64,000 bases of DNA, from contig OZ316895.1 of assembly GCA_973895155.1 (NCBI GenBank), positions 5,910,687 through 5,974,686 on the forward strand, in the 5' to 3' direction. Below are positions 26,231 to 63,410 of this stretch, in pieces. Each line of letters opens with the position of its first letter. Position 1 is the first letter of the stretch. Position numbers and translations under genes: made by a program. The notes beneath the pieces were generated by a model. That model was not told the origin of the DNA and did not search any database. It saw nothing but the letters and a program-made list of their open reading frames with translations. The stretch comes from Marsupella aquatica. Taxonomy: Eukaryota; Plantae; Marchantiophyta.

Positions 26231-28307
26231 AATAAAAAAAAAACCATTGATGAATGTCTCAAACTTAGATTCACTAACAAGCGAATGCCATCGCCAACTA
26301 TTAACGAACAATCCGGGTTGGGCAGATTTAAGATCCCATAGAACTTCGGGAACCTTGGGACTTTCGGACTCTGTCCATGACGAATGTGTGATAGGACCTT
26401 TAATTCGTGCCTTGACTATGCAATGCTTGTGATAAGTCAACCTTGAGAAATTCTGCTAAATTGGGTCCAAACGGATCAATTACGGTAAAAGATTTTCCAG
26501 AATGGGATTTTGTTGGGTAAGGTAGTACAGTAGATAGGATTGAGAGTTCACCCAGGGATCACACTTCGAAAACAGAAAAAAAGGAGTACTGGACAGCCAC
26601 GAAGCTTCCACGAGAAACGGATGACTCCCATGTCCAGTGACTGTACAAAATGAGTTCTCGAGTGCCATGTCATCTCTGAGTCAGAAACAAAACGATTATT
26701 GAGCGCCACGTAAGAATCGGGTAATGGACTCACGTCGACTGTAGTCCGACTGCTGTTCGGCTCTTGAGATACTATTACTTTTTAGAGGTGCGGAGCACGG
26801 CCGTTGTCTTATCTGATCAGCTCACTCTTTGATCCAATCAGTTTCACTTCGCAGCACTTCTATCGGTTCTGCCCACTTGCGATCCAATCGGTTTCAAAAC
26901 TTATATCGGTTCAGCTCACAAACATGCGATCCAATCGGTTTCAATGCTTATATCGGTTCAGCTGTCAAACAAGCGATCCCTCTGTCTCAGTTGCCGCACT
27001 TTCCAGGAAATCGTTGATCGACGACGTGAACTCGTCAGGGGGATCACTACTGTTACGTTATCGTTTCAGCTGAGCGCATTGCGATTCAATCAGTTTCATT
27101 TTGCCGTAGGTGTACATAATCGGTTCAGCTCACTAGCTAAATATTCAGTTTCCGTTTTGCAGCACTTCTATCGGTTCAGCACATTTGCTACCCTTCAGTT
27201 TCAGTGTTGCAGCACTGTCCAGGCATCCTCGAGCAAAGACCATGGACGTCCAGGCATCCTCGAGCAAAGACAATGGACGTATGTATCTAGACGAGTTTTC
27301 GATCCCCGAACGCATTCGATTTTGAAACGTGAGACGTGAGAGTGGCTGAATGCAACAACTACCTTTTGCAAATAGTCTAATGTTAGTAAGCAAGAGACTG
27401 TTTACAGAAGTACTTGTTACATATTGCCTACTCAGTCATGAATGGCTGGCAATACCGTTTTGGAGACTCACTGCAACTATTGTGGAACTATATGCTTCTC
27501 CCATCGAAGCGTGCACCAATCGTGATCTAGACGGCTTCTTCTCTGTTGACAGTACGCGAATCTTTGCCAATGTCTCTCCATTGTTTTCAAGGATTGTGGG
27601 TATATCAAGATGATGCAGTCAGTGATACAGACAAACCTGTGTGTGGTTGGGTTACATTCACTTTTCCCTGCAGTGGGTCCAATCGAGTGTAATTGAAAGG
27701 ATCTGGGTGACCTTGACTAAATACAGCTCGCTCCATAATTTTGTACATTCCCCATGTTACAATCGAGTATTGCAAAGAGATTGCACATGCGTACAGCCTT
27801 CCTATGGATCCTAATTAGGGTAAAACCCACTTTTTCCCTTTAAAAACCATTTTGTCCTCCTTTTCGAATAGGAGCTGCACTATGGTTATTTTCAATTTAT
27901 TGGTTTGAAGTATCACAATGTTCATTTACCTGAATGTCGCAGAAAGACAAGGAGGAAGCCTGCAGTTGGATGACATTCAGAAATTTGCTTGGTGGGTCCT
28001 CCCATGACACAAACCATGGGCCTCTCCCTCTTCTAAGTCCAGTTGGATGACGTTCAGAAATTTGCTCGGTGGGTCCTCCCATGACACAAACCTCCACTTC
28101 TTCTAAGTCCACTGCTGGTTACAAGCACTGCCCGAAACTGCACAAGAACCTTGGGACCCACCAAGAAAGTAGTTCATGAGTGTACCTCAGTCCTCACCAA
28201 TCTAATTTTTGTCCCACTAGCCCACCAACTTAATCTCTGGATGACCTAAAGCCCACCTACTCAATTTCTCCGTGACTTTCTATCAAACAAATAATTTTCC
28301 ATGTACG

Positions 28308-28835
28308 GATGGAGACCCAGGTTGAGCTCATCATCAACTTATACTCTTAAGAAAGAAAGCAGCAATTCGTTTTCCACTGAAAGAGATTCGAGATGTCGAT
28401 GGAGACCCAGGTTGAGCTCATCATCAACTTGTATTCCAAGAAAGAACTCTGCAATTTGTTGTCCATTGAAAGAGATTCGAGATACCAATGGAGGGCCAGG
28501 TTGAGCTCATCATCAACTTGTATTCCAAGAAAGAACTGTGCAATTCGATGCCACTGAAAGAGATTCAAGATACCGATCGAGACCCGGGTTGAGCTCATCA
28601 TCAACTTGTACTCTAAGAAAGAACGCAGCAATTCTGTTTTACTGAAAGAGACGTGATACCGATGGAGATCCAGATTGAGTTCATCGTCAACTTGTACTCC
28701 AAGAAACAATGCAGCAATTCGTTTTTCCTCCGTAAGAGATTCGAAATACCGATGGAGACCCAGGTTGAGCTCATCATCAACTTGTACTCCAGGCAACGAG
28801 AGAACAAAGCAATTCGATTCCGAGAGAGATTCAAA
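28308..28835. repeat. Tandem minisatellite, ~88-bp unit, 6 copies
   Basis: Unit gatggagacccaggttgagctcatcatcaacttgtactccaagaaagaa...gaaagagattcgagatacc starts at ~28308, 28398, 28488, 28575, 28661 and 28751. Confidence 0.9.
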
Positions 28836-33790: not shown

Positions 33791-34729
33791 AAAAATTTCC
33801 CCTTAGTTAAAAGAATTAAAAATATATATAAATAAAAATGCTTGCAGACCAAATTCCAAGGTCACTCACAAATCTGGAATTGGACTGCAGTTTGGGGAGT
33901 CTATGCAGCACTATCATTGATTGCTTCTTGTAGGTTATAATCATTCACTCTAGGACCATAAAATTTGATTCAATCCTAAGCAAATGCCCAAGTAAAGCAA
34001 TTGCATTGAGAGTGTGATGGTAATGATTCCAACTTGCAACCTTAGTGGAAATACGTCAACTTCAAGCTTGCAACCAAAACTCCATTAGATAGTAAAATTT
34101 CCATTGAGCCCTGTCATTCTTGAATCCGAGCGTAGAGAGATTTCATGAACACCACAAGATGAGAAAATAACTCATGGGTGGGAGATGAGGAAACTAAAGG
34201 AGTCTAAAGTGGCATTTGCCATCAAAGTTGCATTGAATAGACACCATAGCACAAGCCCACACTGGGTAGTGCACATGAGAAAATTTATGCAGCAGTCAGA
34301 AGGGGGTGGAACTACAATCATGAAGGCACATGATCGAGTCAGCCAGAAAGGGCCACCTAGATGCCTTTCTGTTGCAATCCTATTTGAGGGTACCCCCAAT
34401 ACAACAAATGCTTGTGATTTACTCCAACAATTTTGGAGAGGGTCACAAAATGGGATCAGTCAGAAAGGAGGGCCAATGTTTGGGGGGTTGACTAATAAAA
34501 AATTTTAGGAATCACGTGCGATCCAAAATATGTATTTTTGGCAGATTTTAACTAAATTTTTAAAAAGTGTAGGAGGCAAAAGAAGGTATTATAAACTCAT
34601 GTTTATAGAATATTCTTTAATATATACCCTTTATAAAGTAAAATAGGTTATTAATATTGAAAATAGAGAATATTCTTGGAATATTTTCTTTATAAAATAG
34701 GTCTATTTTTATTAGGCTAGGATCGCACG

Positions 34730-35059
34730 TGTCACACCATTATGAGTGGTAGTATAGGATATCGGACTATGTAGGTTTGAGGCTTTCATATGTGTGTTAT
34801 CTAAGTGGTTTAGGGTTAGTGTATGTTTGTGAGGGATAGTTATATATCTCTTTGTGTTGGCTCAAAGGTCTCATCTTTTGATGTTGAGCCTTTCGAGCAC
34901 AAACTCTAGCGGCTATGGTGTGGTTGTCTAGGTTGTGTGTACGTAATGTGGATTCCTTGAGGCGCAAGGTGCGTTTGGCTTGACATAAGTGTGTGATCGC
35001 GTCAGACAAGATTGTGTGTTTGATTGGCATCAATCGTTGCTCGATTATTCTTGAAGATT
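34730..35059 (+). repeat. Terminal repeat A1 (330 bp; contains TATA-like ttatatat at ~34840 and the self-primer at 34870-34884)
   Basis: Matches 43834-44163 with about 5 substitutions by eye, all transitions. Confidence 0.95.
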
Positions 35060-35074
35060 ACATCAAAAGATGAG
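35060..35074 (+). promoter_or_regulatory. Self-priming primer binding site (Tf1/sushi type)
   Basis: acatcaaaagatgag is the exact 15-nt reverse complement of ctcatcttttgatgt (34870-34884), which lies ~30 nt downstream of the TATA-like box. It starts immediately after repeat A ends. Confidence 0.85.
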
Positions 35075-35723
35075 CTTCAAACTCTGTTGTGCGGACTGTG
35101 CAGACAGAAGTTTGATTTCATTTTGGTTTTGTTGTTGACGATTCGTGGTAGCTCGGATCGGGTGTTGTTATTGAACGGATCGCTGGTATCTCGATCTATT
35201 GCAAGTTGGTGCGACGCTTGCGTAGTTCAAGTGAAGCTTCAAGTTGTTGTTGCTAAGTTGTGGTTTTGGAGTTGCGGTCTTCATCGATATGCGGTGTTGC
35301 ATCGTGGAGGATTGATTGTGTGATCGACAAGCGAATGTTGCTGTCGACAATTGTGTGTGAGACAGACGATGGTGTCTGGTCCTATTTTGTGAAGGGAAAG
35401 TAGTCGGATGTGCGACTCTTTGTGGTTTTGATTGAGGTGGTTCAATTGGGAGCCCGATAGTTGATTATGTTTACAATTTTTTGTAGGATGCAGTTCTGAT
35501 TTGCATCAAGTTCCTTGTTGATGGATAGTGCGTTTCTATGAAGGAAACGACGTTGAATGTTGGTGAATTGTGTTGGCAGCGCGCGACAAGATAAGGCACC
35601 GCGGAGAGGCAAGGCGGCTGTGACTTAGGGCACAGAGGAAACGACAAATACTGAATAGTGATTTTCCCGTCAATTGCGGCGTGTTTAGCGCATGACTTGA
35701 GCAAAGAGAGTTTTGGTGGGGAG

Positions 35724-36297
35724 GCACCCACAGCCCGCGGCCTGTGACCAATTCATCTTGGTTGTGTGAGTTGGCACCCACAGCCCACGGCCTGTGACCT
35801 CTTGCAGCTTGGCTAGCACCCACAGCCCACGGCCTATGGCCTCTCATAGTTTGGTTGTGTGGGCTAGCACCCACAGCCCACGGCCTGTGGCCTCTCATAG
35901 TTTGGTTGTGTGGGCTAGCACCCACAGCCCACGGCCTGTGGCCTCTCATAGTTTGGTTGTGTGGGTTGGCACCCACAGCCCACGGCCCGTGGCCTCTTGT
36001 AGTTTGGTTGCGTGGGTAGTCACCCACAGCCCACGGCTTGTGGCCGATTCATCTTGGTTGTGTGGGTTGGCACCCACAGCCCATGGTCTGTGGCCTCTTG
36101 TAGTTTGGTTGCGTGGGTAGTCACCCACAGCCCATGGCTTGTGGCCGATTCATCTTGGTTGTGTGGGTTGGCACCCACAGCCCACGGCCTGTGGCCTCTT
36201 GAAGTTTGGTTGCATGGGTAGTCACCCACAGCCCACGGCCTGTGGCTGATTCATCTTGTTTGTGTGGGTAGGTACCCACAGCCCACGGCCTGTGGCC
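35724..36297 (+). repeat. Tandem array in the element 5' leader, 12 copies of cacccacagcccacggcctgtggcc, period ~42-52 bp
   Basis: Core at ~35724, 35774, 35816, 35867, 35918, 35969, 36021, 36071, 36122, 36171, 36223 and 36273; internal inverted repeat ccacag/ctgtgg. Confidence 0.95.
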
Positions 36298-36315
36298 TAG
36301 GGTTTTGGAATCACG

Positions 36316-37998
36316 GAGTCTTCCAATAATGCAAAGCTACTTGGTGAACAACGGACTGGTTTCACTCAAAGTGGAGTGCAATTTCGGCCAACGACATTGC
36401 TAGCAGATACTAGTAGAGCTTCAGATAGTGATTCTGACGAGGGCTCTGTAGTCAACTCTCCTCATCATCAGGTAGTTGCACCATTGTTGTGGGATATGGA
36501 GGAGACGTATGGGTCCACTAAGGGCCCTAGAAGATACTCTGGTGCAGTTGGCACAATTGATTTGGATGATTTCATCCAAGAGTTTGATACGTGGTGTGAT
36601 ATGCAAACGATGCGTAACGCCACATTGTTTACACCTTTCATGGCATGGAAAGGGTTGTTTCAGCATTTGGAGGGTCCACCCATGGATGATTACCATGAGT
36701 TTCGGAAGACCCATTTGGATGATATTGAGATATGGAGACAACATTGGTCACCAAACTATGTGTCCATCACTTACGGCACAAGTGCGGTTTCTCAACCTAT
36801 TGCCCCGGCTGTTGCTTCTTCTAGTAGCACTAGCTAGAGTGGCACTCCACCAGTATCCACTGTTACTCCTACCAGTGCAATTGTGGGTGGGAGTGGAGTT
36901 GTGCCAACATTTAACCCTGTGGTGAAGTTCTTTGATGTGTTGAAGCAGAACTACCAGGGTGTGAGAACTGATAAGTTGAAGGGTCTTCAAGATTTTTAGC
37001 ACAAGACTGGAGAGAGTCTACGCGAGGCATATACTCGTATGCGAAGATTAATTATAGTCACCAAGGGAGTGACATAGGCCCAAGCAGTTCAATTTTGGTA
37101 TGCAATTTTGGATAGAAAGTTGCGGCGTAGAGTAAGAGATGCCACTCTATTGAGGGATTCAGATCCCACATTGGCTATTGTTTTTGCACTAGCCGAGCGC
37201 ATTGAGCTCAATATGGTGAATGAGAAGGTGGTGACTTCCGGATTTGTCAAGGAAGGCTCACCAAAGGTTGCATCTACACCCACACCGCAACCTATTGTAA
37301 GGAAGAGCCAGAGGGAGAAGCCTACAACACGGGAATCTACTAGTCAGAGACCTGTGCCCTCCTATGCTAGACAACAGTCAGGATGTTGGACTTGTGGTGG
37401 GGATCATGCACAAAGATATTGCCCGGATAATAGAGGGTCCGGAGGGGCATCTATGCCCGATCAACGATTATGTGATCATTGTGGAGTTTCTGGTCACACC
37501 AAAGATAGGTGTTTTGTACTCCATCCTGAACTACGACGGGGAGGATCGCGTACATATGATCAGGGAAGAGGAGGTAGAGGTGGTGGTCGTGGACGAGGGA
37601 TGCCACATGCAGGGAGACAACAAGGTGATGCTCCTGCCACTACCATAGATCCAAAAGATGCAAAGATTGCTCAATTGGAGCAACAACTAGCTGCCATGGC
37701 CAGTTCTCAGGTTAGACCTACTTCTGGTGATGGAACTTCTACATCTTATGGAGCTGACGGAGACTTGGCCACCATGGGATTCATGTGTGGCAGTGCCCAT
37801 GTTGACGCATTGGCAGCTTTGACTAGAGGAGCAACCAAAGTCCATGAGCCCCGAGGAGCAATGGTAGAGTTGGATCCTCAAAGGGGGGAGGCTCGTCAAC
37901 AAACAAAGCTTCCTCAATCGTTTACGTTGTTAGAGGCAGTTCACACTACCTCTATGAACCCGGTTAAGACAAATCCAAGTGTTGATAAGTCGGTATAA
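36316..37998 (+). pseudogene. gag: Gag of the DNMT-carrying element, two CCHC zinc knuckles, interrupted by three TAG codons
   Basis: One frame from ~36316 with TAG at 36835, 36997 and 37075. Contains RRYSGAVGTIDLDDFIQEFDTWC, KTGESLREAYTRMRRL, CWTCGGDHAQRYC, CDHCGVSGHTKDRC and an RGG-rich tract. Start codon uncertain. Confidence 0.85.
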
Positions 37999-40234
37999 GG
38001 GTGATGTTGCAGCAGGTCTAGCAAGTACCTTGTTGGGGGCGGCCACTAACATTGTGCGCACCCCATTATTTTCAGCAACAGATATATTGGCATTGGGAGT
38101 TAGTCCAGCTGAAGTGTTCAGATTGGTGGCCACATTATGTGAAGACACTCCAGTTGTTGCTTCTCGTGCAGACACAATGCATAAATCTGAAGTTGTGGAG
38201 TTGATTCCACCTATTGCTAGTGGTGAAACATGGGCAGCAGCAGCGGCGAGGTTGATGGAGTTACCAGCACGCCCTGCCTTTGAGAGAACTAGGTTTAAAC
38301 CTAGTGTGGTATCATTGGATAATCGGAGTGATATCTTTCGATTAATTGGGCCTTTTGGAGCAATATACCAGCCAGAACGAGTGTTATTGGATACTGGTGC
38401 TCAGCCCTTGATGTTGGGTAAGTCTGCGATACAAGGATTGGGATTGTGTCCAGATGATTTGGAGGAGTGTCCTTTTCCCATTCAGACTTCATTGGGAGGA
38501 CCTACACCCAAACAGCATATCACCAGACGAGCACTTGAACTTAGGATTCGAGAGGATCATCCAAAGGATAACTCACGGATCCAGGCTCAAGCTATTTTGA
38601 CTAAGGCTAAGTCGTATGATGTGTTAGTGGGATGTACAGTACTTTATCCTATGGGATTTATTCTTGATTTTTGGGATGAGTCGGTGTCGTATCGACCCGA
38701 TTGGCAATCTGGAGATGCTCGATTGAGCCAATTGCCAATGCGATTTAGTGGACCTGTGGGAGGTCCTAAATCTGCACCATTGTCTTTGGCAGCATTCAGT
38801 AGTTTGATTACTGGATCTGATGAGTTGATTGAAGGTAATGCACATGCAGCAGATGTTCCGGCAATGGAGGAGCCACGTGAGGAACACATGATGGGTGTAT
38901 TACCTGTTGATACCATTGTGGCACCAGTATGGGGTACTGGAGAGGCCTTGCAACAAAATGCGACCCAATTGATACATGATGCCTGGCGTCATGCTTTTAC
39001 ACCGGAGTCAGGAGCACAACAGTCTTTTGCAGATGGACCGGTGACCCTTTCACCATTGGATACTACTCCTATTGTGTGGCAGTATCTAGAGGAGGGTATT
39101 TGTTTGTTGGATTTATTTGGTGGGATTAGCACTGGATTGGCTGCTATTCTTCAAGCAGGAATTCCTGTGCGTCGTTACTTGTACGTGGAAAATGATGAGA
39201 TAACACGGAGGATCTCACTACGTCATGTAGCGATGATGGTGGAACGTTATCCACATTTGTTGCCAGTGGATGCCGTTCGTGGTTATCAGCATGCATTGCC
39301 TGCTGATATTTCATTATTGGGAGTGGATTATTTGGATCGTGTTGGCCCCATTGATTTGGTGATTGCGGGTTGGCCATGTCAGGGTCAATCTCGGGCTGGA
39401 ATTGGACATGGATTTCATGATCCAAGATCTGCATTATTTTGGGAGATGTTACGTGTGTTGCGCCATCTTCAGATGCATCAGACACATTCTCCTGCATACA
39501 TTTTGGAGAATGTCTCATTATTGGGTGATGATCATCATCGAATTGTTGCTAGTGTTCATCAGGTTCGATCTTGGATTGGACCTGCTGTGTTATTGGATGC
39601 TGCACGTGTGGGTTCTCGTGCACATCGTCCACGATTATGGTGGACTAACTTGTTACCATGTGAGGTCTTAAAGCGAGCATTTGATGGTGTACCTCGCTCA
39701 GCAACCTTAGTGATGGATAGTATTTTGGATCCAGGGCGTCGTGCACAAAGTGTTACCCAATCTGATCGAACCCCATTGGCAGTGGTGAATATTGTTGGGC
39801 ATCCGCGTTGTGCATTACCCACTTTTGTGAGCCATTCTGCTTCATACGCATTTCGAGCAGGTGGCCCTGGACTTGTGTGGGATACAGCTCTACAACGACT
39901 AGTAGAGCCTACCGCTAATGAGAGAGAGCGGGCTATGGGATTTTTGACTAGCACCACTGCAGTGGCCTCGGTGTCCGAGCATTCACGTTGTCAAGTCCTT
40001 GGTCAAGCCATGGATTTGAATTGCTTGACTTGGATTATCAGCTTGGGATTAGCTGAACAATTGCGAATGCGCACTTCTAATGTTACAGATCGTCCATTGG
40101 TGAGCTTGCGGCCTATCGAGACAGTAGCGGCCACAGCTGGGGGCGAGCAGATGCTTGATGGACCTATGGCAAGATTGGCCAAGGTAGAACATATTGTTGA
40201 GCAGAAGGAGGTTGCTCAAACTATTGATAAATAG
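37979..40234 (+). CDS. Pol N-terminal part: aspartic protease fused to a C5-cytosine DNA methyltransferase
   Basis: Protease VLLDTGAQ (~38381-38404) and YDVLVG, then a complete MTase domain. The ORF ends at one TAG that is in frame with the downstream RT ORF. Confidence 0.93.
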   Translation: MLISRYKGDVAAGLASTLLGAATNIVRTPLFSATDILALGVSPAEVFRLVATLCEDTPVVASRADTMHKSEVVELIPPIASGETWAAAAARLMELPARPAFERTRFKPSVVSLDNRSDIFRLIGPFGAIYQPERVLLDTGAQPLMLGKSAIQGLGLCPDDLEECPFPIQTSLGGPTPKQHITRRALELRIREDHPKDNSRIQAQAILTKAKSYDVLVGCTVLYPMGFILDFWDESVSYRPDWQSGDARLSQLPMRFSGPVGGPKSAPLSLAAFSSLITGSDELIEGNAHAADVPAMEEPREEHMMGVLPVDTIVAPVWGTGEALQQNATQLIHDAWRHAFTPESGAQQSFADGPVTLSPLDTTPIVWQYLEEGICLLDLFGGISTGLAAILQAGIPVRRYLYVENDEITRRISLRHVAMMVERYPHLLPVDAVRGYQHALPADISLLGVDYLDRVGPIDLVIAGWPCQGQSRAGIGHGFHDPRSALFWEMLRVLRHLQMHQTHSPAYILENVSLLGDDHHRIVASVHQVRSWIGPAVLLDAARVGSRAHRPRLWWTNLLPCEVLKRAFDGVPRSATLVMDSILDPGRRAQSVTQSDRTPLAVVNIVGHPRCALPTFVSHSASYAFRAGGPGLVWDTALQRLVEPTANERERAMGFLTSTTAVASVSEHSRCQVLGQAMDLNCLTWIISLGLAEQLRMRTSNVTDRPLVSLRPIETVAATAGGEQMLDGPMARLAKVEHIVEQKEVAQTIDK
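39095..40040 (+). other. DNMT3-like C5-methyltransferase catalytic domain (within Pol)
   Basis: Motifs in canonical order: I LDLFGGISTG, II RYLYVEND, III ADI, IV GPIDLVIAGWPCQGQS (catalytic PC), V LFWEMLRVL, VI YILENV, VII VLLDAARV, VIII AHRPRLWWTNL, IX ERERAMGF, X RCQVLGQAMDL. Confidence 0.93.
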
Positions 40235-40257
40235 CAACGAGCGACTGACTCTTCCAT

Positions 40258-40445
40258 CCATAGCCCACGGCTTGTGGCCTCTTCATCTCCAAAGGAAGAC
40301 GTCACAGTTTTGATGGAGAGTCACAGCCCACGGCTTGTGGCCTCTTCAACTCCAACGGAAGACGTCATAACTTTGAAGGAGAGTCATAGCCCGCGGCTTG
40401 TGACCTCTTCAACTCCAAAGGAAGATGTCACAGCTTTGATGGAGA
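40258..40445 (+). repeat. Three 60-bp in-frame repeats in the MTase-RT linker (SHSPRLVASSTPKEDVTxLME)
   Basis: ca(c/t)agccc(a/g)cggcttgtg(g/a)cctcttca at ~40259, 40322 and 40385; same core as the 5' leader array. Confidence 0.9.
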
Positions 40446-43270
40446 GTTGGGAACCACAGATTGGTCCTAAGTTGACCGGGAGGGAGAGACGTTGCATGCA
40501 TCAATTCTTGAAGAGTTATTGGAATTGTTTTGCATTTAGTATGAAGGATTTGGGGACATTGAAGGGTCTTGGTATTCAGATCGAATTGGCTAGTGATGCG
40601 CCAATCTTTCGACGACCGTATCGGTATAGTGACATGGAGAGGGCTTTGATCCAGAGTAGAACTCAGGATTTGTTGGAGGCTGGTTTGGTGGAGATCTCAT
40701 ACGGGGAGTATGCATCTGCCACAGTGATGCCAGCCAAGAAGGATGTGCATGGCAATTACACAGATAGGCGAATGTGTGGTGATTATCGACCTATTAATCG
40801 TCAGACAAAATCTGATCGATATGCCATGCCAACACCGGAGGAGATCTTTGATGCTGTGGGGCATGCAAAGATATTTAGTTCGTTGGACCTCAAGGCAGGG
40901 TACCATCAATTGCCAATTAGGCATTCGGATAGATCCAAAACAGCATTTTGGGGAATTGATTCTTATGGCAAAGATCGTTTGTATCAGTGGTTGTTCTTAC
41001 CATTTGGGTTGAAGAATGCACCAGCTGAATTCCAAAGAGTTATGGATCGAATTCTTGCAGGTTTGGATTTTGTGAGATGTTACATTGATGATATTTTGGT
41101 CTATTCTTCGACTGTGGAAGAACATCAAAGACACTTGCAGATTGTGTTGGAGAGATTGAGAGAACATGGATTGAAACTCCATCCTGGCAAATGTAAGTTC
41201 TTCCAAGACAAAATTGAGTATTTGGGCCACACTATCTACCCAGGAGGATTGGGTGTGCAAGAGACTAAGGTGGAGGCCATTACACAAATTCCTCGTCCTA
41301 CTGATGTGAGTAGAGTTCGTGCATTCTTGGGATTGGCGAGCTATTATAGACGGTATGTGAAAGGATTTAGCCAACTTGCTAAACCTTTAACTATACTCAC
41401 TAAGTTGGACCAGGAGTGGATTTGGGGTGACGACCAAGAGCATGCTTTCCAAGAATTGAAGGAAAGATTGGCGTCAACACCTATTTTGAGAAGACCCGTT
41501 TCGGGACGACCATTTCAACTACACACTGATTGGAGTGGAGTAGGACTTGGAGCAGTGCTGACTCAGAAGGATGATGAGGGGAATGAGTTTGTTGTGGCAT
41601 ATGCCAGTAGATCAAACAATTCAGCAGAGGCTAAGTATAGCTCGTATGAGGGAGAGTGTTTGGCAGCTATGTGGGCTGTGGCACATTTCCGTTGCTATTT
41701 GTTTGGTAATCCGTTCACCTTGATCACTGATCACCAGCCCCTCAAGTGGTTAATGGAGTCTAACAAGCTTACAGGAAAGCTTGCACGATGGGCATTGTTG
41801 TTACAAGAGTATGATTTCCAGGTTGTACATAGGCCTGGTAAAGTGAACTTGGATGCGGATGGGTTGAGCCGTAATCCATGTACCAATCAAGAGGATGAGA
41901 CTGGAGCTCGATGGCATGATGAGTCGGATAAGGAGAGTGTGCCAGGATGGCATGCATTTGCCTTTCTTTGTTGGGTTCCAACATATAGTGGATCTATGGA
42001 CTCTACTTCATTGGATGGGGTAGACGTTGAGTCTTCAGATATGGATGTTGATGAGGTAGTTTTTGGGCAGCAAGATATTCATAACGACAAAAGAGTGTTG
42101 GAATATTTGCGTGGTGGCTCCATTGTTGGCAATTGTGATGCTAAGGAGCGAGATAGGGTTCTACAACGAGCCAAGAGGTTTCGATGGGAAGGAAACCATC
42201 TTTTGAGGATACTACGTGATGGCAAGGTGTTGGTTGTACCAAAACCGTCACAACGAGTACGTTTGGTGCGACATGCGCATGAGGAGTTGGGTCACTTTGG
42301 TGTGAAACGCACATATAGCTTGTTGCAGACACAGTATTGGTGGTGTGGTATGCGCACTGAGGTCCAACAATTGATTGCTAAGTGTGTGGTATGTGATCGA
42401 GTGCGAGCATCGTTCAATGCTCCCACTCCCCAATTGCATCCGCTATCGATAATGGGTTTGGGATATCGATGGAGTTTGGACTTTGCTGGTCCATTACCTC
42501 TTACCCAACGTCATAATCGATATATTTTGGTTATGGTGGAGCACTTCTCCAAGTGGATTGAACTAGTGGCATTGCCAGATAAAGCTGGTGGAGGAGTGGC
42601 TATCACATTTTTGGATCGAGTACTCAGTCATTTTGGAGCACCAGCTGAGGTGTTGACTGATCAGGGTACGGAATTTCATGGAGAGTTTGAGGGTTTGTGT
42701 GAGAAAGCTCTTATTGATCATCGTACTACTTCTCGTGATCATCCTGAGGCAGATGGATTGGCAGAGAGAGTTGTACAAACCGTGAAGAGAGGATTGCATA
42801 AGTATGGCTTGCAGGTTGGTCATTTGGGAGATTGGGATCTCCAGCTACCTTGGTTAGCTATGGGTTACCGTTTTAGTCGACAAGCATCACTTGCATCCTT
42901 CTCACCTTATTTCTTGCTCTATGGTAGAGAGCCAGATTTGTCAGCGGCTATTCGTCGTGATGTGGCAATTGTTGTGGATTTGGACGATCCCGATGTTTGG
43001 GTCAAGGTGTGTTCAGAAAGGGCACGAGTTTTTGAGAGAGTCATGCCCATGGCCTTTGACAACCTTGCCATTGCCCAACATCGTGATACTTTGAGGTATG
43101 CCACTATTCGTGGAGGAGGTTATCGTGCGAGGATTCGACGGTTTCATCTTGGTGATTTTGTTTATTTGCAGCAAACAGCACCCACGACACTTGATGTGAC
43201 CGCAGGTCGGACAATCTTACGTGTGCGTGAAGTGTTGTCTTTCTGGTGTCCTAATGTTGGAAGGACGTAA
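40274..43270 (+). CDS. pol: Pol C-terminal part: reverse transcriptase, RNase H, DDE integrase
   Basis: RT: RMCGDYRPIN, SLDLKAGYHQ, LPFGLKNAPAEFQ, YIDD (41081-41092). RNase H: LHTDWSGVGLGAVL, YEGECLA, TDHQPL. Integrase: HEELGH...CVVC, LDFAGPLP, LTDQGTEF, GLAERVVQTVK. Confidence 0.97.
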   Translation: MASSSPKEDVTVLMESHSPRLVASSTPTEDVITLKESHSPRLVTSSTPKEDVTALMESWEPQIGPKLTGRERRCMHQFLKSYWNCFAFSMKDLGTLKGLGIQIELASDAPIFRRPYRYSDMERALIQSRTQDLLEAGLVEISYGEYASATVMPAKKDVHGNYTDRRMCGDYRPINRQTKSDRYAMPTPEEIFDAVGHAKIFSSLDLKAGYHQLPIRHSDRSKTAFWGIDSYGKDRLYQWLFLPFGLKNAPAEFQRVMDRILAGLDFVRCYIDDILVYSSTVEEHQRHLQIVLERLREHGLKLHPGKCKFFQDKIEYLGHTIYPGGLGVQETKVEAITQIPRPTDVSRVRAFLGLASYYRRYVKGFSQLAKPLTILTKLDQEWIWGDDQEHAFQELKERLASTPILRRPVSGRPFQLHTDWSGVGLGAVLTQKDDEGNEFVVAYASRSNNSAEAKYSSYEGECLAAMWAVAHFRCYLFGNPFTLITDHQPLKWLMESNKLTGKLARWALLLQEYDFQVVHRPGKVNLDADGLSRNPCTNQEDETGARWHDESDKESVPGWHAFAFLCWVPTYSGSMDSTSLDGVDVESSDMDVDEVVFGQQDIHNDKRVLEYLRGGSIVGNCDAKERDRVLQRAKRFRWEGNHLLRILRDGKVLVVPKPSQRVRLVRHAHEELGHFGVKRTYSLLQTQYWWCGMRTEVQQLIAKCVVCDRVRASFNAPTPQLHPLSIMGLGYRWSLDFAGPLPLTQRHNRYILVMVEHFSKWIELVALPDKAGGGVAITFLDRVLSHFGAPAEVLTDQGTEFHGEFEGLCEKALIDHRTTSRDHPEADGLAERVVQTVKRGLHKYGLQVGHLGDWDLQLPWLAMGYRFSRQASLASFSPYFLLYGREPDLSAAIRRDVAIVVDLDDPDVWVKVCSERARVFERVMPMAFDNLAIAQHRDTLRYATIRGGGYRARIRRFHLGDFVYLQQTAPTTLDVTAGRTILRVREVLSFWCPNVGRT

Positions 43271-43517
43271 TGGTATGGTTTGGAAGGATCATGTGCACAA
43301 TTGTGCACCATGTCATCTTTCAAACATTGACGATACAGTAGATCCAAGTTTGGCTCATGTTCGTGCCGGCTTGAAGTGTATGTTGTGTGGATCTGCTCAA
43401 GGAGCAGCCACTATGTTGATTTGTGATAAGTGTTCTAGAGGATGGCACATGTCGTGTTTGACACCACCATTAGAGGTGATTCCTAGTGGATCATGGTTGT
43501 GTCCTCAATGTCGGTGA
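43240..43517 (+). CDS. Integrase C-terminal extension with PHD finger (separated from Pol by a 1-nt frameshift near 43240)
   Basis: CMLC-x11-CDKC-x4-H-x2-C-LTPPLEVIPSGSWLCPQC is a canonical C4HC3 PHD finger. Confidence 0.9.
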
Positions 43518-43681
43518 AGCCGACTAGTTACCATTGGTGTTCTCATGGAAGGTATAGATTGCAGGAAGGTGAACGATGGGGCTCACTTGCACCCGGCCTC
43601 CTGATCTCTACACTTAAAAAGGTGTATATCAACCTTGTAGAACTTATGGCTAGCTAGAGTTAGGGGACCTCACTCCCAGCT

Positions 43682-43689
43682 AGGGGGGC
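43682..43689 (+). promoter_or_regulatory. Polypurine tract (aggggggc)
   Basis: G-run directly abutting the first base of repeat B1. Confidence 0.7.
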
Positions 43690-43833
43690 GATTGTGAGTT
43701 TTGGACATGTGTGGATAGGAGTTCCACTTGTACTCCATTCTCTTATGTTTGTGATGTTGATTGTGACTATATATGCTTAGATATGTGTGACAAACGATGT
43801 ATGTTGTGTAGCGATGTTTATGCGCACGACAGC
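43690..43833 (+). repeat. Repeat B1 (144 bp; inferred 5' part of U3)
   Basis: gattgtgagttttggac...gcgcacgacagc, repeated at 44164-44303. Confidence 0.95.
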
Positions 43834-44163
43834 TGTCACACCATTATGAGTGGTAGTATAGGATATCGGACTATGTAGGTTTGAGGCTTTCATATGTGTG
43901 TTATCTAAGTGGTTTAGGGTTAGTGTATGTTTGTGAGGGATAGTTATATATCTCTTTGTGTTGGCTCAAAGGTCTCATCTTTTGATGTTGAGCCTTTCGA
44001 GCACAAACTCTAGCGGCTATGGTGTGGCTATCTAGGTTGTGTGTACGTAACGTGGATTCCTTGAGGCGCAAGGTGCGTTTGGCTTGACATAAGTGTGTGA
44101 TCGCGTCAGACAAGATTGTGTGTTTGATTGGCATCAATCATTGTTCGATTATTCTTGAAGATT
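43834..44163 (+). repeat. Repeat A2 (330 bp)
   Basis: tgtcacaccattatgag...attcttgaagatt, a copy of 34730-35059. Confidence 0.95.
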
Positions 44164-44303
44164 GATTGTGAGTTTTGGACATGTGTGGATAGGAGTTCCA
44201 CTTATACTCCATTCTCTTATGTTTGTGATGTTGATTGTGACTATGCTTAGATATGTGTGACAAGCGATGTATGTTGTGTAGCGATGTTTATGCGCACGAC
44301 AGC
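44164..44303 (+). repeat. Repeat B2 (140 bp), right terminus of the element
   Basis: Copy of B1 with two transitions and a 4-bp (tata) deletion; ends cacgACA(gc). Confidence 0.93.
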
Positions 44304-47300
44304 CGTGGTACCCCAAAATATACACTTAGTTAACCCCCTGAGGGCCAATGGAACACAACCCTAACTAAGTGTAGTTTTTACTATACTAAAAGGGTATGTA
44401 CTTACAAGGAAATGAAATCTGATGGGAAATGCTACTATTGCCCTCAAAACAACATTAATACACTTAAATGCGTAAGCCATTTTTCACTTTTTACCGTTTT
44501 GGCAAAAGTAATGGGAATTTTCCCTCTACCCAATGCAAATCAAGACTGTATGTCTTTATGAGAACTCCCATGAAAGTTGTGGAAGCCTATCAGTTGCGGA
44601 ACTTGACTACCTTAACACTTAGCTCCGGCGGCGCTGACTCCACGCCGAGCTCCCCTATGGTCCAGGCCCGGAACAACCATCTAGGGGGGACTTGTGGGCA
44701 ATGGGGCGTGGCACTGGCAAAGGCAAGGCGCTAAGCTGATGATATACACTAAGGACTTAGATTAGCTGAGGGCTAGTCCGGTCAAGGGGAAAGGGCTAGA
44801 CTCAAGGTCGACCATCCGGACCTCGGACGGACTTTGAGTTCAGAGGGCTTGATTGAGTTTAGGGTTTAGGGTTTAGAGCTCCTCTTGGGCCTAAGGCAAA
44901 TGGAGTTTACTCCATGGGCAACAAACGCTTGGGGCATGAGTTACGGCCCGATCCAGGTTTGGCCGATCCGGGGTCCCGGGCGACAACGGGATCTGAGAGC
45001 TTAGGCATGAGCATCATTCGGCCTAATCACAACTGTCTAAGGCATTCCGTTTACAGACGTCTAACTAGAAAGTTATGGGCGTAGCCAATTGGTGGCGCGC
45101 CCAGAAGTGCGTTGGGGTCCAAATGGGGGACCAAAGTAGGTCCGGGGGTGGCAGGTCTCCAAAAACATATATGAGGGGAGTGGTGTCTCCCTAGGGGCTA
45201 AGGGCGAGCCGAAGTCATGAGCCGCGACGGTCGCAACACCAAGGGAAAACGTCAAACAGAAACGGGTATAACTTCCTAGCGGGAAGTCCGTTGGAGAACT
45301 TCTTGAGTGCGTTGGAAATCTCTCGAGGAGGGCTACGTCCTCCTGAGCTCAGATGGGTCTAGGGGTGCCATGGATTATCGGGGTTTGTTGGGGCTATCTC
45401 GCCCGCTTGCCAAATCCTGCTGAAATAGCAGTCAAACCACGTTCAGTCTCCAAAGGGAGCTTGCGTTGGGGAGGCAAGGCCAAGTATGCATGGAGGTTGA
45501 GTTCAAGGGTACTTGGCCCCTAAGCCGTCAGTGGGGTGAGAACCGGGAGTTGGTTGCCTGAGTCGGGGCCATTCTGGTCCGACGTGTTGGGACAAGCTTG
45601 GGACGAGCTTTAGGACAAGCTACGCTATTTGGGCCATGAGCATGTCTTGGGGGCAGGGTGGTCAGTTGGTGATGGATAGGTACAAGGGGGAACCCGGGCT
45701 GCACCCAAAGAGGGGCCGTTCAGGACGAACAGCGGGTGTCGGCTTTGGTTCCCGCTTATGGCAACGGGATGACCGATCGTTGACCTACTTACCAAATGTC
45801 TATTGAGCTTGAGTTAGGATGCTATACTTGGGGAAATCTAGATCCTGTCGGGTTACTTACTGAGGTACTTGGTTGCTTGTGCAGACTGTGAGAATCGTTG
45901 AGTAACAGTCATGTTAGGGAGCAAGTGCGGCTTCGTATGGGAGGGGTCGCGATCGGTGCAAGGGGCACCAAGTTGCTTGCTCGAGGAGTTTCGTGGGGGC
46001 TTTCGGGCACCAGGGGCACTTAGGCGTGGGTGCTGGGATTGGTGAGGGCGTTGGGTGGCAAGGTCCACCACTCTATCTTTTGTTCCCTTAAGGAAGTAGT
46101 GTGGGCTCAACACTTAACCTGTAACCTTAATTACGGTCCATTAGCGTTAGGCATGACTATTGTGCAAACAATTTGGACTATAGCCTATGAATGTGATATC
46201 TGGTAGAAATTTAGGATTCTGCAAAACTGCAATGAAGTGCTAACAATGAGTTACTTATCAACCTTTTTGCTTGTGACCATCATCCCCTGGAATTTGGGGA
46301 TGATGGTTGAAAGGCAGCTGGGCTGTTGATTAGCTTGTGATGATTTTTTGTTAATTCCCTGGAATTTGGGGATGAGACTTGAAAGGCAGCTGGGCTTTGA
46401 GCCTGATGTGGCTCTTCGTGCTTCATTGGGGGTGACAGCAGGGAAAGAGAGGAGACATATAATACTGTTGTTGGGAAAGCTTTGCCCCAAAAATCTTTTC
46501 AAAGCCTAAAGTCTGGTGTTGACCTGTAAAGTATTTCTCCAGATGAAAAGTGAGTTCTTATAAAGCTACCGGACAGTGGGAATGAGCCGGGTATACAACC
46601 CTAACACAAAGCATTTCTTAGTTTTGTCAAGAAAATCAATGGCCTTGCCTTGACTTGACAAGGATTGAGCCACCGTATGTATCCTAAGGCAAAAGGGATG
46701 GCTGTCTGAATTTGTTAGCAATTGTGGGAACTGAAACTGAAATCCCACTGAAATTTAAACAAATGTTGCTGATCTGTTGGTGTCATAAATGCATCGTACA
46801 GCTTTTTCAAAGCATGTTCGTGACATTACAGACACTTTGTAAAGTCTGTTTTGTGACATTACGGACAGTGTTAGCAGATATGGAGGTTAGACCATACCCC
46901 TCATGGGGCCGGTCAATGCTGCCTCATCAGATTTGTAAAATCAAGTTACGGGATCAACCATGATTTCTCTGTGGCCAAGTTCTGAGACCCGCTTTTAGAG
47001 AAAAACCCAAGTAATCTTTTCGTGGCCAATATGAACTTCCCAAGTGACTGAAATTGAACTGCGGTAGATGCTCTATAAGCTCTTATGATTTTCTTCTTGA
47101 CGGAGGTACTTGAGATGCTTGGTCCTACACCTAGGTGTTAACGTCTCCTGGAGTGATTCATCTTCTCATCAAACGTACTGAAGCACTGCTAGAAATATGT
47201 TAAGTTCAAATCTGGAAAAACGAAATTCTTCAGTGGAGAGTGAGGCAACTGAAGAATTTCGTGGCTGAGCACTCATTTGCCTTGTATTAAGATCCAAGAA

Positions 47301-48248: not shown

Positions 48249-51200
48249 TTACCATGAATGTAAGCACTCTTTTGGCGCTTGCCAGAAGACTCTCTCTTCC
48301 TTCTTTTGTTGCGGTGACATGGCCTTGTACTGGGCCCAATCCGAAATGGTAAGTTTCAGATCAAATAGTTTCCTCTCGAGCCCTGTACAGCAATTGGCAT
48401 GCATGGTGCATACTTTTGAAAGATCCTGCGATACTTCACAAAATCCTCCAAAATAGATGGTCTCAAGAAACTCGATCTTCAGCTTAAACCTGGCAAACTC
48501 CCTAGTTTTCTTGATAAAGTTGAAGACATCCTGATCGTGTTGAGTAGGATGTTTTAGGCGTGATTCGTGCCAAAACTTGTAGAAGTCGACAGTCTGCTGA
48601 TTTGAGCGGACGAACACAAATCCTCCATTGGGAAGATTAGTAAGGTCAGTTGGATTGCCATTGAAGTGATCGCAGGCAATCTGGAAGTCCGCATCGGGTG
48701 AGAGATGTGGAAAAGGGTCCCGAAACCACATGATGTCTGCATCCTGCAAGCCAGTAGAACACAATTTCAGGTCAGTACACAGTTTTCTCAGTGGAAAGGC
48801 CGTTGTTTGCAGGAAATGCCTACTGCATCATAGGCACATGCATTAAGTTACTCCCATAGCACAGCTATTGCAGGTGGGCACACATTACAATCAATTAACA
48901 TTTGTCTAAAACTCTACTTCCCCAAGAAAACACGAAAGATTCCATATTGCAGATTTCTCCATGGTTATAACCAAGCACATCCTCGGCACAGTTGAAAAAC
49001 CAGGCGCCTACTAAATACCATTTACCAAAGGTATAAGATAACGCAAACCAATTAGACGAAATTCAGAGGACACGCCATCACTAAGCGATAACAGAGTAAA
49101 TCCGTCTCTCATCACATGTGAAGAAACACCAGTGGAAGTCTGATCTGCTGGACACGTCGAGACTCCCTTGATCATTTCTAAGTACGGCGACTTTCCAGAG
49201 AGTTACCCTCTATCACCGGGATGGAAAAGTGGTAAGACAACAAAAACGACAAATTTTGTCAAATCTGCACACCAGTCGTGACCGAAAGAAGTTAAAAGAC
49301 TTACTGAAAATAGCAGGTCGTAACCCAGTTCGAGCACGATTCTCAAGAATTCAACTCGCCGCCACATCATCTTCAAATAATCACCGCTCATAAAAAATTT
49401 CTCCGTAGCAAAGTCAACACCCTCTGTCTCTAATCTAAAGCAATGATGATGAATTTCCAGGCATCGATCGTACGATGTCTGATCCAGAGCTATGATCAGG
49501 AGGTGATTCAGATAGTGGGAGATCCCGTCGCCTGCATGAAAACTCCCCAAAAAGAGATCAATCATACTGTCCTCTGAAGCCCAAGCTGCATTCAATGCAG
49601 TCATTAAAAGAGTTCTATTCGGCAGTGCCGCCTTCTCGAGTATCTCAAAGAGCCCAGGGAATTCCTCTTCAATCTGAAAATACAACACATAGAGTCAGAA
49701 GTGTTCCTACGAATTTTCACTAGTACACTCTAAACGACGAAGACATTCAGCCCAAACATTTTATCCAAGTTCATTCAAAAATACGTCTCCAAATTTAATA
49801 CCGGAGCAAGAAGACCCATTCAACACCGACCGCCTTGTGCTGCAAGGAATTTGCCTTCCAATCCAGAAGAGGGAGTAGGATGGTCACAACAGGTGGACGG
49901 AAGGTTTTCTAACAAGTTAGAGAACAAGATCATGTTTGTAAATGTTTTACACAAGGCAGCCAGAATTAGAACTATTCACTCAACCAATTATTTGGAGAAA
50001 GGACTCGCACACCAAAATAGAGCAGACGTTTTGACATATTTAATTTTAAATTTAACGCACTCCTGGTCCTGGGCAATTGGCCAGAAGGAAAATTGCAGGG
50101 GAGAAAACTCGTGCGAATGGTGCCTAGGTTGTCCACTAACAAACACACTAGCACCTGCTCATATTGGAACACTGCAGAGAGTAAGAGACCCCAGAGGCGA
50201 CTATCCAAGGAAGAGCACGAGTTTCAGACTCATGCTCCGAGGCAAATTTACTTCAGTTTAAGGAATTCAATCCGCGGATGGACCCTAATTCTGCTGTGTA
50301 GAAATCCTCTCCTAGTTAGCATTCCTTAACAGATTTCCCTCGTATAAATTGGGCCAACTATGCGGAAATCTACACTCCTATTTGATTCGATCCCCAGGAA
50401 CCTGAATGCTGGAGTCTCTGTATCAGAAGTAGGAGAGGAGGCTTAACGAGGCATTCTGCACGGTCGCAGCCATCTGAAATGACCCAACGTGACTCCATGC
50501 GACGCACTCAGGAAGCGCACCGGCTTCTCGATTAAGCACAGCGATAGACCCCCCGGATGCTTCTTAACCAAGCCCAGTGCGAGGAGATTACATAATTCGG
50601 GAAGGGGTAAGGATCAGCCCTGTGGGAGAAAATTACCAGAATTCATTCTGTCCTAGAACAAGTATAACAATCCGGGGGACCCAACGTTAAATCCGGGCCA
50701 GGCGAGGAAAGTAAAATTGAATCGAAATAGCGCTCGTTCAAGAACTTGCCGAAACTCTTTGGAGGTGTCGTGAGTAGACATGAACGTGCCCACTCCAGTC
50801 CTAATGAACATGTTGACTGCTGACTACCGTGATGAGCCTGTAGAGTTTAGTCTACGAGCGTACCGCCTGCCAGATTCGCTCCATCTCCAACTGTGCAACT
50901 ATCTCCCTAGACAGATCGAGATCCAGATCCAGATCCAGACTCACACAACTCAATCGGGCCAATCGGAACCGCTGATTAGACCAGATCATCCGAAATGTAC
51001 CAAACTGGTATAGACCTTCTGCACGGCCACGACATTCAATGGTCTTTCCTTCGTGGCGATGGCATCGAAAGTTCACTGCAGAGACTACGGACCCCTAGAT
51101 GTGCATCATCACGATGTTCCAGAACATGGACATGCACATTATCACCCCACGACGACTGCACTGAAGCATCACTCTAGGAAATCTGCAGCGAGAGACAGGT

Positions 51201-51512
51201 CAATATAGATCGAGATGGATGGGGACAGATGGAACTTACAGCTGAAAAATTCACGCCGGTCAGTTTAGTTTGAAACACAGGTGGACTGAATTTTGCTGTC
51301 TGATTTGCAGAGGATCCTCCCTCGTCAGATAAAATCTCTCTTCCCTCTCCATCGGTGTTCGTCCCCAGGAAATAATTGAACCGATTAGCCAGTGCATTCT
51401 GGACGACCATCGCAGTGGGAGTATGCATTACGAGGAAGTAGGGGAGGATTATTAAAGGAGTCCATAGTCCAAGAACAATCAGATCCCTCAACCGGCACTT
51501 CAGCATCGCCAT
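48249..51512 (-). CDS. Nucleotide-diphospho-sugar transferase family (PF03407-type) glycosyltransferase, type II membrane protein, 3 exons (51512-51240, 49673-49305, 48743-48249), ~378 aa
   Basis: N-terminal TM segment LIVLGLWTPLIILPYFLV; TALNAAWA, IDLFLGSF, DYLKMMWRRVEFLRIVLELGY; DxD motif FS|DADIMWFRDPF; NGGFVFVRSN, HDQDVFN, FGGFCE, MHANCC. All junctions are GT-AG in phase 0 and preserve the frame. Confidence 0.92.
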
Positions 51513-52589
51513 TTCTCGTCCTTCCTTTCCCTCCTCCTCTGAGCTACTGTATCTCAAGTGTTCGCTCCTCCTTTCTCCTCGTACTCCTAGAGTAAGTATC
51601 TACGACCTGTTCCTGCACTTAACCATACTCTTCACACATAATATTGTCCGATCATGGCCTCCGTCAGTCCCTAAGCGTCATCCCTCGCCAGTTAGCTTCT
51701 CTCCTTTGAATCCGCACCACGGAGCCTCAACGAGGAAGCACCCCGCTGAAAACATCCATTAGGTCAACATTGCGTCGACAGAAAATCGAAGGAATGCACA
51801 GGGCAGACCCACGCTCCGTGACTCTTTTCAGCCCGATTGAGATAGAAGAGTGTGCACAGATGCCGTCCCGCTCGAAAATGAACCCTGTCTGACCATACCC
51901 GCGCACATTACTCGATGTCCCTTCCCCGATTTCCCCTTTCGCACGAACCCTCCTGCCGGCGAATCCGCACGCCACGCCACGCCACAGTACTGTAAGAATC
52001 GAAGAGTGGAATACTCAAAAAGGGCGTATCGACTATCAACAAAGTCTGCCTCGTGCGATGCGAAGTCCTCGATCCGAGTCAAACGCGTGATCCAGCCATG
52101 TCACCCTCTGTTTCTCGCATTCACAGAGTAAACAATCAATCTTCCTCAGAGCTCAGTCCTCACTACTCAGTCCTCCGCTCCTCGCCCTCGTTCTCGGTCA
52201 CTCCGTCGTCTCCTGATGCCCTGCCGCCGTGGTGCTGTGATGCCATTGCGCAGGAGCGCGATCTGGAAGCTGGAGGACTGCTGCAGCTGCTGCTGACGAG
52301 CATCATCATCATCGTGCAGCAATCGGAGCACAAGAAAGCACTCTTCGTCTCTTCTCGACTGGAACTCTGGAAGGGCCGCTTTTTGGCCCGAGAATTTCGG
52401 GTCTCGAGCGGCATGATTGAAATTTTCGCATAATCGTTAAAATCGTCAGTAGCGCGGCTCAGAATTCCCCAATTAATGCATTCATTCTCGTTTTACTATA
52501 CTAAATTACTTTATTCGAGCATTGACAAGTGTTTGCAATAATTATGGCAACTGCCATGTTGTCATATATACTGTATGTATGAGTGTATG

Positions 52590-63029: not shown

Positions 63030-63410
63030 AAATAATGCATGCAAGTAAAACAACTAATGCATGCACCTAAAACAATTTGTGTATGCATGCACCTTGTGAC
63101 TTGCACATTTGCTCACCTTACATGAGCATATAAAACAACTAATGCATGCAAATAAAACAATTTGCATGCATTTTGTGGCTTGCACATTTGCTCACCTTGC
63201 ATGCACATAAAATAACTAATGCATGCAAATAAAATAATTTGTATGCATCTAAAACAATTTGTGCATGCACCTTATGGTTTGCACATTCGCTCACCTTGCA
63301 TGCACATAAAACGACTATTGTATGCAAATAAAACAATTTGCACATGCATCCAAACAATTTGTGCATGCATATTGTGATTTGCATAGTTGCTTACCTTGCA
63401 TGCACATACG
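63030..63410. repeat. Tandem array rich in tgcatgca palindromes (tgcacatttgctcaccttgcatgcacataaaacaactaatgcatgcaaataaaacaatttg), ~4 copies
   Basis: Direct reading; unit ~80-100 bp. Confidence 0.85.

Follow-up and report, generated by a model that had tools for sequence, protein, structure and literature searches.

Retrotransposons that carry a cytosine DNA methyltransferase (MTase) of the DNMT3 type have been described from the alga Klebsormidium nitens (KnitGypsy-Dnmt3) and from dinoflagellates (SymbioDIRS-Dnmt3) (de Mendoza et al., 2018; PMC5890265; cited here, like the other papers below, from the portion of its text that was available). Why a transposon keeps an enzyme of the very class that silences transposons has been an open question since 2018, and activity of the Gypsy-type enzyme has never been demonstrated. 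Later papers, in the text available, cite Gypsy-DNMT3 elements as streptophyte and name no land plant (PMC12344493; bioRxiv 10.64898/2026.05.21.726589), and the accessible parts of a Marchantia methylation preprint (10.1101/2021.02.12.428880) and of a survey of plant long terminal repeat (LTR) elements (PMC6317226) do not mention the family. As the initial annotation of the locus studied here had supposed, we found no report of a land-plant case in the literature, of which subscription journals were thinly covered. We analysed 64,000 nucleotides (hereafter the window) of the liverwort Marsupella aquatica (assembly GCA_973895155.1, contig OZ316895.1, positions 5,910,687 to 5,974,686 of the forward strand), which hold at 34730-44301 (+) a Ty3/gypsy element with a DNMT3-like MTase domain between its protease (PR) and its reverse transcriptase (RT). 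Judged by its sequence, this element is a land-plant variant of the KnitGypsy-Dnmt3 kind (de Mendoza et al., 2018), with many relatives in mosses and liverworts and others in green algae, and no one-off capture.

The MTase domain (39095-40040, +) lies in a 758-codon open reading frame (ORF; 37958-40234) together with the protease motif LDTGA at 38387, and a single TAG in the same phase separates it from the RT, as had been read from the sequence at the outset. Its motifs follow the canonical order and not the permuted order of the DRM enzymes: LDLFGG (39107), YVEND (39182), GPIDLV-AGWPCQ (39344-39382), LENV (39503), AHRPRLWW (39620), ERERAMGF (39920) and QVLGQAM (39992), with the catalytic PC, ENV and RxR all retained in frame. 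The proposed search with the hidden Markov model PF00145 gave an E-value of 2e-11; this was the sole Pfam match in the MTase frame, and DUF3444 was not found there. Against solved structures, the single sequence matched 32 sequences and ranked DNMT3A first (E 9e-11), and a 72-row profile matched DNMT3A/B/C best (E 2e-28), with DRM-type enzymes including DRM2 (1e-12 to 1e-15), HhaI (3e-9) and DNMT2 (4e-6) weaker. The structure predicted from the 72-row alignment reached a predicted local distance difference test (pLDDT) score of 95.8 (34 for the single-sequence model), and in Foldseek ranks 1-50, among the matches listed, were all DNMT3A/B/C (top template modelling score 0.70/0.84). The best viral model had a similar E-value (4.5e-18) but a root mean square deviation of 8.0, against 3.2 for DNMT3, and the 30 matches found among viral contigs were all distant phage MTases. 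The catalytic residues are the most conserved positions of the enzyme (in metagenome copies Cys in 62 of 62, Asn in 65 of 65 and Glu in 57 of 65). Sequence comparison and structural modelling confirm a complete, DNMT3-like and unpermuted MTase between protease and RT, and its origin from DNMT3 is drawn from the profile, the fold and the available text of the 2018 paper (PMC5890265).

The MTase region matched 63 proteins, among them 21 from Marchantia polymorpha, two each from Calypogeia and Sphagnum and one each from Closterium and Cymbomonas; two more are labelled as bacterial metagenome-assembled genomes (MAGs), which we read as probable mis-binning. Three family members (P0024, P0064 and P0412) stand under bacterial MAG names and probably represent DNA of plants or algae that was sorted into bacterial bins. 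Longer forms of the MTase proteins add Chromochloris, and RT relatives add Klebsormidium, Riccia, Tetraselmis and Coleochaete; no vascular plant is among the named sources of MTase matches. The domain is found throughout the family (73 related metagenome loci were collected, and 855 protein clusters at 50% identity scored E 1e-10 or better), and the initial annotation's own grounds for doubt, that it might occur in this copy only, did not hold. The MTase tree comprises retroelement, dinoflagellate and phage enzymes only, without host DNMT3, DRM or DNMT1 (130 sequences were kept, 103 from distant types being dropped at random). In it the window MTase groups with the Calypogeia, Sphagnum and Marchantia domains at a support of 1.0 and forms a subfamily of its own (70-71% identity to the Calypogeia and Marchantia domains, 84% to one further protein), and three dinoflagellate domains are the sister group of the window family relative to the phage enzymes (0.982). 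The RT tree (185 sequences) agrees with it (0.998) and has a wider clade (0.906) that takes in Klebsormidium and Closterium; Closterium MTases are present in the MTase tree, and the three K. nitens RT proteins found do not span the MTase. Of 11 cluster members examined, seven carry motifs I, IV, VI, VIII and IX, among them five Marchantia ORF1 models of 1278-1281 amino acids, and there are apparently intact copies in Marchantia. In a large algal branch (L062 146-5090; proteins P0292 and P0363) the MTase stands between RNase H and integrase and a PHD finger is kept. A further protein, P0139, is a Gypsy Pol in which a Dam adenine methyltransferase lies between the protease and the RT, and in which the PHD finger precedes the integrase.

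By its substitution pattern the MTase is under purifying selection and is kept throughout the family. Pairwise ratios of non-synonymous to synonymous substitution rates (dN/dS) of the window MTase were 0.13-0.15 against six loci (dS 1.7-2.1, near saturation) and 0.21-0.27 against two distant ones. In the unsaturated pair L037/L039 (dS 0.26) they were 0.12 for the MTase, 0.05 for the RT and 0.13 for the protease; elsewhere dS in the comparison with RT was often saturated and several RT ratios are missing. This overall range of 0.12-0.27, from a comparison of collected loci of the sort that the initial annotation had called for, is not that of a neutrally drifting domain. Among close copies, a count of rare versus common variants did not separate selection from decay, because deamination hot spots recur. 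Across the 84 elements that have the two domains, the distances for MTase and for RT were correlated (Mantel 0.72; 0 of 999 permutations), and 23 of the 35 supported MTase splits recur identically in the RT tree. The 67 elements whose MTase follows RNase H and the 17 in which it precedes the RT form separate groups in both trees, and one old capture of the MTase followed by a shift of position fits these sequence data best.

The RT-RNase H-integrase frame of 1011 codons is in the same phase as the MTase frame and begins after one TAG (40232-40234). At the 55 loci with both sides of this junction, the window included, the last stop before the RT is followed by CAR in 46, compared with 37 of 740 premature stops inside domains. 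Representatives of seven subfamilies with unrelated flanks all keep TAG-CAR or a form one transition away. In the nine exceptions the motif is still held (two), CAR has a C-to-T change (two), a sense codon replaces the stop (three) or the case is unresolved (two), and TAA forms are scattered on the tips of a 37-locus tree. Type I readthrough has the motif UAG-CAR-YYA (PMC3542737, as given in its available text), and an exact CAR-YYA is present in six loci (L037, L039, L054, L055, L064 and L071). Among the listed PR-MTase or Gag-PR-MTase proteins with the full domain, 35 of 36 end no more than 181 residues past it; stem-loops predicted 3' of the stop are inconsistent (z -0.4 to -3.7). On the strength of the stop-plus-CAR statistics and of its retention across subfamilies, the conserved stop in TAG-CAA-CGA (40232-40240) is not a product of decay and is likely a programmed readthrough signal. 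The initial annotation was right about the position of the MTase, but the domain is the C-terminus of ORF1 (Gag-PR-MTase) before a conserved, likely leaky stop and does not belong to a single Pol frame; the enzyme would be made with Gag, and RT-integrase would be reached by readthrough. Three in-frame 63-nt repeats follow the stop (40262-40447); they share one core sequence with a 51-nt tandem array in the leader (35716-36298), and relatives, judged from gap lengths, do not have them. Two internally deleted derivatives (L033 7023-7417 and L042 5093-5486) have a shortened RT joined to B, with TAC in place of the junction stop.

The two complete terminal LTRs of Metaviridae are absent, and the repeats are split in the layout A-internal-B-A-B. 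Repeat A1 (34730-35059) begins with TGTCA at a 5' end shared with relatives and is 98.5% identical over 330 nt to A2 (43834-44163), all five differences being transitions; B1 (43690-43831) ends in CGACA, as does B2 (44164-44301) at the 3' end of the element, and the two are 95% identical. The layout is complete in L022, L047 and L058. The window copy has TG...CA ends and a polypurine tract (PPT; 43677-43689, CAGCTAGGGGGGC, conserved in relatives) before B1; relatives, with ends TGTCA...CGACA, have 4-bp target duplications, within the 4-6 bp of Metaviridae, perfect in five of the six with both ends and matching at three of four bases in the remaining one. The inner B1|A2 join forms an att-like junction, CGACA-GC-TGTCA (43827-43838), and CGACA-NN-TGTCA stands after a PPT in ten further loci, including the distant L037 and L062, although 9 of the 20 matches to this pattern lay in unrelated places. 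At the end of the window copy stands the GC that is also present in the inner junction. The A2|B2 join brings together exactly the base before the primer-binding site (PBS) and the one that follows the PPT, as a joining of cDNA ends would. A symmetric circle would allow B in front of the 5' end, yet B is absent there in all 17 5' ends. One relative (L030 5014-13653) has A-internal-B only, with a perfect 4-bp duplication, and may represent either single-repeat integration or B1-B2 recombination. Taken together at the sequence level, the split repeats and 4-bp duplications suggest that a DDE integrase acts on the internal junction, an unusual route of integration.

No tRNA-type PBS was found in the element; the 15 nt adjoining A1 (35060-35074), which lack the tRNA-type TGG start, are an exact complement of 34870-34884, a predicted self-primer formed by the first RNA bases. 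These lie just downstream of a TATA-like box (34840-34847) that stands some 25-30 nt upstream of where the RNA is predicted to start and whose function is suggested by its sequence. Complementarity of 15 nt was reached in 0 of 20,000 shuffles, and the helix is present in the minimum free energy fold (z -2.95). In the moss-type subfamily the sequence is a different one but the pairing recurs: of 14 copies, 9 match at the corresponding position to within 3 of 14 bases, and 5 do not.

The remaining parts, all on the forward strand, complete the order A1, leader, gag, PR, MTase, TAG, RT, RNase H, integrase, PHD finger, PPT, B1, A2, B2, which includes the gag-PR-RT-RNase H-DDE integrase order of Ty3/gypsy elements (Metaviridae). 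The gag region (36496-37998) has two CCHC-like knuckles and is 54-57% identical to Marchantia ORF1 proteins, which match Retrotrans_gag weakly (E 0.008). The aspartic protease (38315-38740) matches Asp_protease_2 at E 0.008 in the window and 3e-6 in a relative. RT, with YIDD at 41081, and RNase H (40460-41900) are clear in Pfam (E 1e-34 and 1e-36), as are the H2C2 zinc domain and DDE core of the integrase (42080-43270; E 3e-16 and 3e-12). The PHD finger at the integrase C-terminus (43242-43517; PF00628, E 4e-12) is out of frame in the window copy and in frame with the integrase in relatives; its best solved matches are CHD4, DPF3, ATXR5, KDM5, PHF21A and UHRF1, most of which we take to be readers of unmodified H3 tails. 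An Rfam scan of 34000-45000 gave no match. The window copy is dead and non-autonomous: gag has TAGs at 36835, 36997 and 37075, and the frame is broken near 37960-38000, before the protease, and near 43240-43270. The description of the MTase as intact thus applies to the domain and not to the copy that carries it.

We propose, with about even confidence, that this dead copy belongs to a green-plant Ty3/gypsy lineage whose ORF1 is a Gag-protease-DNMT3-like MTase, the enzyme entering the particle and methylating the element's own cDNA before integration. The RNA would start near 34870 and prime its own reverse transcription. Most ribosomes would stop at TAG-CAR, yielding about one MTase per Gag, and RT-RNase H-integrase-PHD would come from rare readthrough. 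The protease would free the MTase inside the particle, where it would methylate the cDNA, and the new copy would arrive marked like host repeat DNA; cDNA ends would be joined, the integrase would cut the internal CA-GC-TG junction to give A-internal-B-A-B, and the PHD finger may steer integration to chromatin with unmodified H3 tails. Packaging and cDNA methylation, which the initial annotation had also proposed, are conjectural. In yeast, DNMT3 domains of dinoflagellate retrotransposons carried out de novo CG methylation (PMC5890265). We are doubtful of a broader claim, namely that a green-plant-wide, formally undescribed lineage forms particles with a capsid-level DNMT3-like enzyme and self-methylated cDNA, that this mark and the internal att junction lead to DDE integration from an end-joined intermediate, and that such a self-methylating cycle persists in the apparently intact copies of Marchantia.

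Several observations speak against the proposed cycle or the evidence beneath it. In yeast, neither KnitGypsy-Dnmt3 nor DNMT3B methylated DNA, and the authors called the outcome for KnitGypsy-Dnmt3 inconclusive (PMC5890265). In sister lineages the MTase either shares the RT frame or follows RNase H, and Gag-level amounts are therefore not required everywhere. At the junction, CAACCC of a single subfamily accounts for 37 of the 46 loci with CAR, some being one insertion seen twice, and both CAA-CGA of the window and CAA-CCC of the main subfamily deviate from CAR-YYA. Five of the 35 supported MTase splits conflict with the RT tree, and 41 close, mostly decayed copies gave a dN/dS of 0.51 for the MTase versus 0.39 for the RT, ratios that are as expected from post-insertion decay. 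The window copy itself has no target duplication (CACG at 34726-34729 and GCCG at 44302-44305 match at two of four bases) and is possibly a recombinant or an imprecise insertion.

The enzyme may instead work in the nucleus on chromosomal DNA, whether the insertion site, existing copies or competitors, and so tune silencing. With production in bulk alongside Gag, much of the enzyme would remain free, and the encoded PHD finger resembles readers of unmodified H3, a parallel to the ADD domain of animal DNMT3. In bryophytes, host DNMT3 performs CHH methylation of transposable elements (10.1101/2021.02.12.428880). Since the PHD finger is on the integrase beyond the stop and not on the MTase, which has neither a targeting domain nor DUF3444, we regard a nuclear role as unlikely. 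A use in integration itself, with CG methylation in the att-like end (C-G-A-C-A) marking which of two identical junctions is to be cut or shielding the joined intermediate, would suit the co-occurrence of MTase and split repeats from Klebsormidium to the window family, the junction with CG kept even in L062 with its MTase after RNase H, and the asymmetry of the 5' ends, which a plain two-repeat circle leaves unexplained; that co-occurrence may, however, be mere common descent, and we consider such a use quite improbable. Still weaker is the case for a domain that binds or methylates RNA, or serves as a nucleic-acid-binding part of the particle, with DNA methylation not its job: it does sit in ORF1 with Gag, and its algal relative was without DNA activity in yeast (PMC5890265), but fold and motifs fit DNMT3 far above DNMT2 (E 2e-28 versus 4e-6) and it is the catalytic residues that are best conserved.

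Two further explanations concern expression and origin. The conserved TAG might be bypassed by splicing or re-initiation, and the main subfamily is indeed T-rich before the TAG and has an ATG three codons after it, while predicted 3' stem-loops are inconsistent. Conservation, though, lies 3' of the stop (CAR-NYA or close) with the 5' side unrelated among the seven subfamilies, the ATG is not kept and the frames are continuous; we find this bypass unlikely and favour readthrough. Capture of a host DNMT3 once, by the window copy, with drift since then, would agree with the state of that copy, which is dead, and with its being the only MTase-bearing one in the window. It is refuted by the 73 related loci and 855 protein clusters, by dN/dS well below 1, by the absence of DUF3444 and by the congruence of MTase and RT trees.

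A second related copy, older and truncated to an A repeat, leader and gag, with a 1.4-kb insertion, lies at 54221-59023 (+; 69-77% identity); only its gag gave matches, and it has no protease, MTase or RT. The gag stops at 36835, 36997 and 37075 are on the same codons as TAGs at 56367, 56546 and 56624 of this 77%-identical copy, which may reflect either recurrent CAG deamination or descent from a gag-defective lineage; the roughly 1770 codons downstream of them have no stop except the junction TAG. Flanking genes are intron-split and of plant type: exons of a likely Virilizer-like host gene at 8233-12410 (-; Pfam VIR_N, weak, E 0.004) and a host nucleotide-diphospho-sugar transferase gene at 48249-51599 (-), with PF03407 matches in two exons. 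Probably another retroelement left the remnant at 59801-61410 (-), which consists of a 416-codon frame plus, upstream, a frame with a CCHC-like knuckle and 39-nt repeats, and which has no Pfam match. Unannotated tandem arrays occupy 14625-15544 (period near 92), 28259-28790 (89) and 63014-63408 (77-99 nt).

With the lineage present in mosses and liverworts and five full-length ORF1 models in Marchantia, the question of why a transposon keeps such an enzyme can be tested in a host for which genetics and methylomes are available. The Marchantia copies are annotated as hypothetical genes and may distort both counts of DNMT genes and studies of methylation in bryophytes. The integration route suggested by the split repeats and 4-bp duplications is of interest in itself.

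Some known groups can be set aside. DIRS and Ngaro elements were rejected on the rve and Integrase_H2C2 matches and the lack of a tyrosine recombinase match in Pfam, Troyka on its CG...CG ends, 3-bp duplication and restriction to animals as opposed to TG...CA and 4 bp, and Phygy on its tRNA-Trp PBS, NCGN duplication and lack of an extra domain in the text available (PMC6317226). The combination of Dam, chromodomain and DNMT4-like MTase that marks EpiLTRs is not found in the window element, nor is the DUF3444 of host plant DNMT3.

Each of the closest systems shares part of the design. Tf1/Sushi and moss Tcn1 likewise have no tRNA PBS and a primer predicted from their own RNA, but have a chromodomain instead of a PHD finger, ordinary LTRs and, in the accessible text, no reported MTase (PMC6317226). 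Host DNMT3 of non-flowering plants has the same unpermuted catalytic domain, with a C-terminal DUF3444 (PMC6453930), whereas the window MTase lacks DUF3444 and forms an intronless part of a polyprotein. UAG followed by CAR is shared with type I readthrough (PMC3542737); the window stop differs in following protease and MTase and not Gag alone. EpiLTRs of Cymbomonas and Euglena are also LTR elements with a cytosine MTase and a chromatin-reading domain, yet their MTase is sister to DNMT4 and accompanied by Dam and a chromodomain, and their authors hold them distinct from streptophyte Gypsy-DNMT3 (bioRxiv 10.64898/2026.05.21.726589). SymbioDIRS-Dnmt3 is another retrotransposon-borne Dnmt3-like enzyme, with de novo CG methylation shown (PMC5890265), in a DIRS-class element integrating by tyrosine recombinase and not by a DDE integrase. 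KnitGypsy-Dnmt3 comes closest, with its Gypsy domains, an intronless unpermuted Dnmt3-like domain under purifying selection and a DIRS-like A/B repeat layout (PMC5890265). The window family differs in its land-plant hosts and in likely readthrough, predicted self-priming, the PHD finger (0 mentions) and 4-bp duplications, which do not figure in the available KnitGypsy-Dnmt3 text (PMC5890265). It differs also in that KnitGypsy-Dnmt3 has MTase and RT in the same ORF (PMC5890265) and the window family keeps a conserved in-frame stop between them, which therefore makes it a variant of KnitGypsy-Dnmt3 and not the same family.

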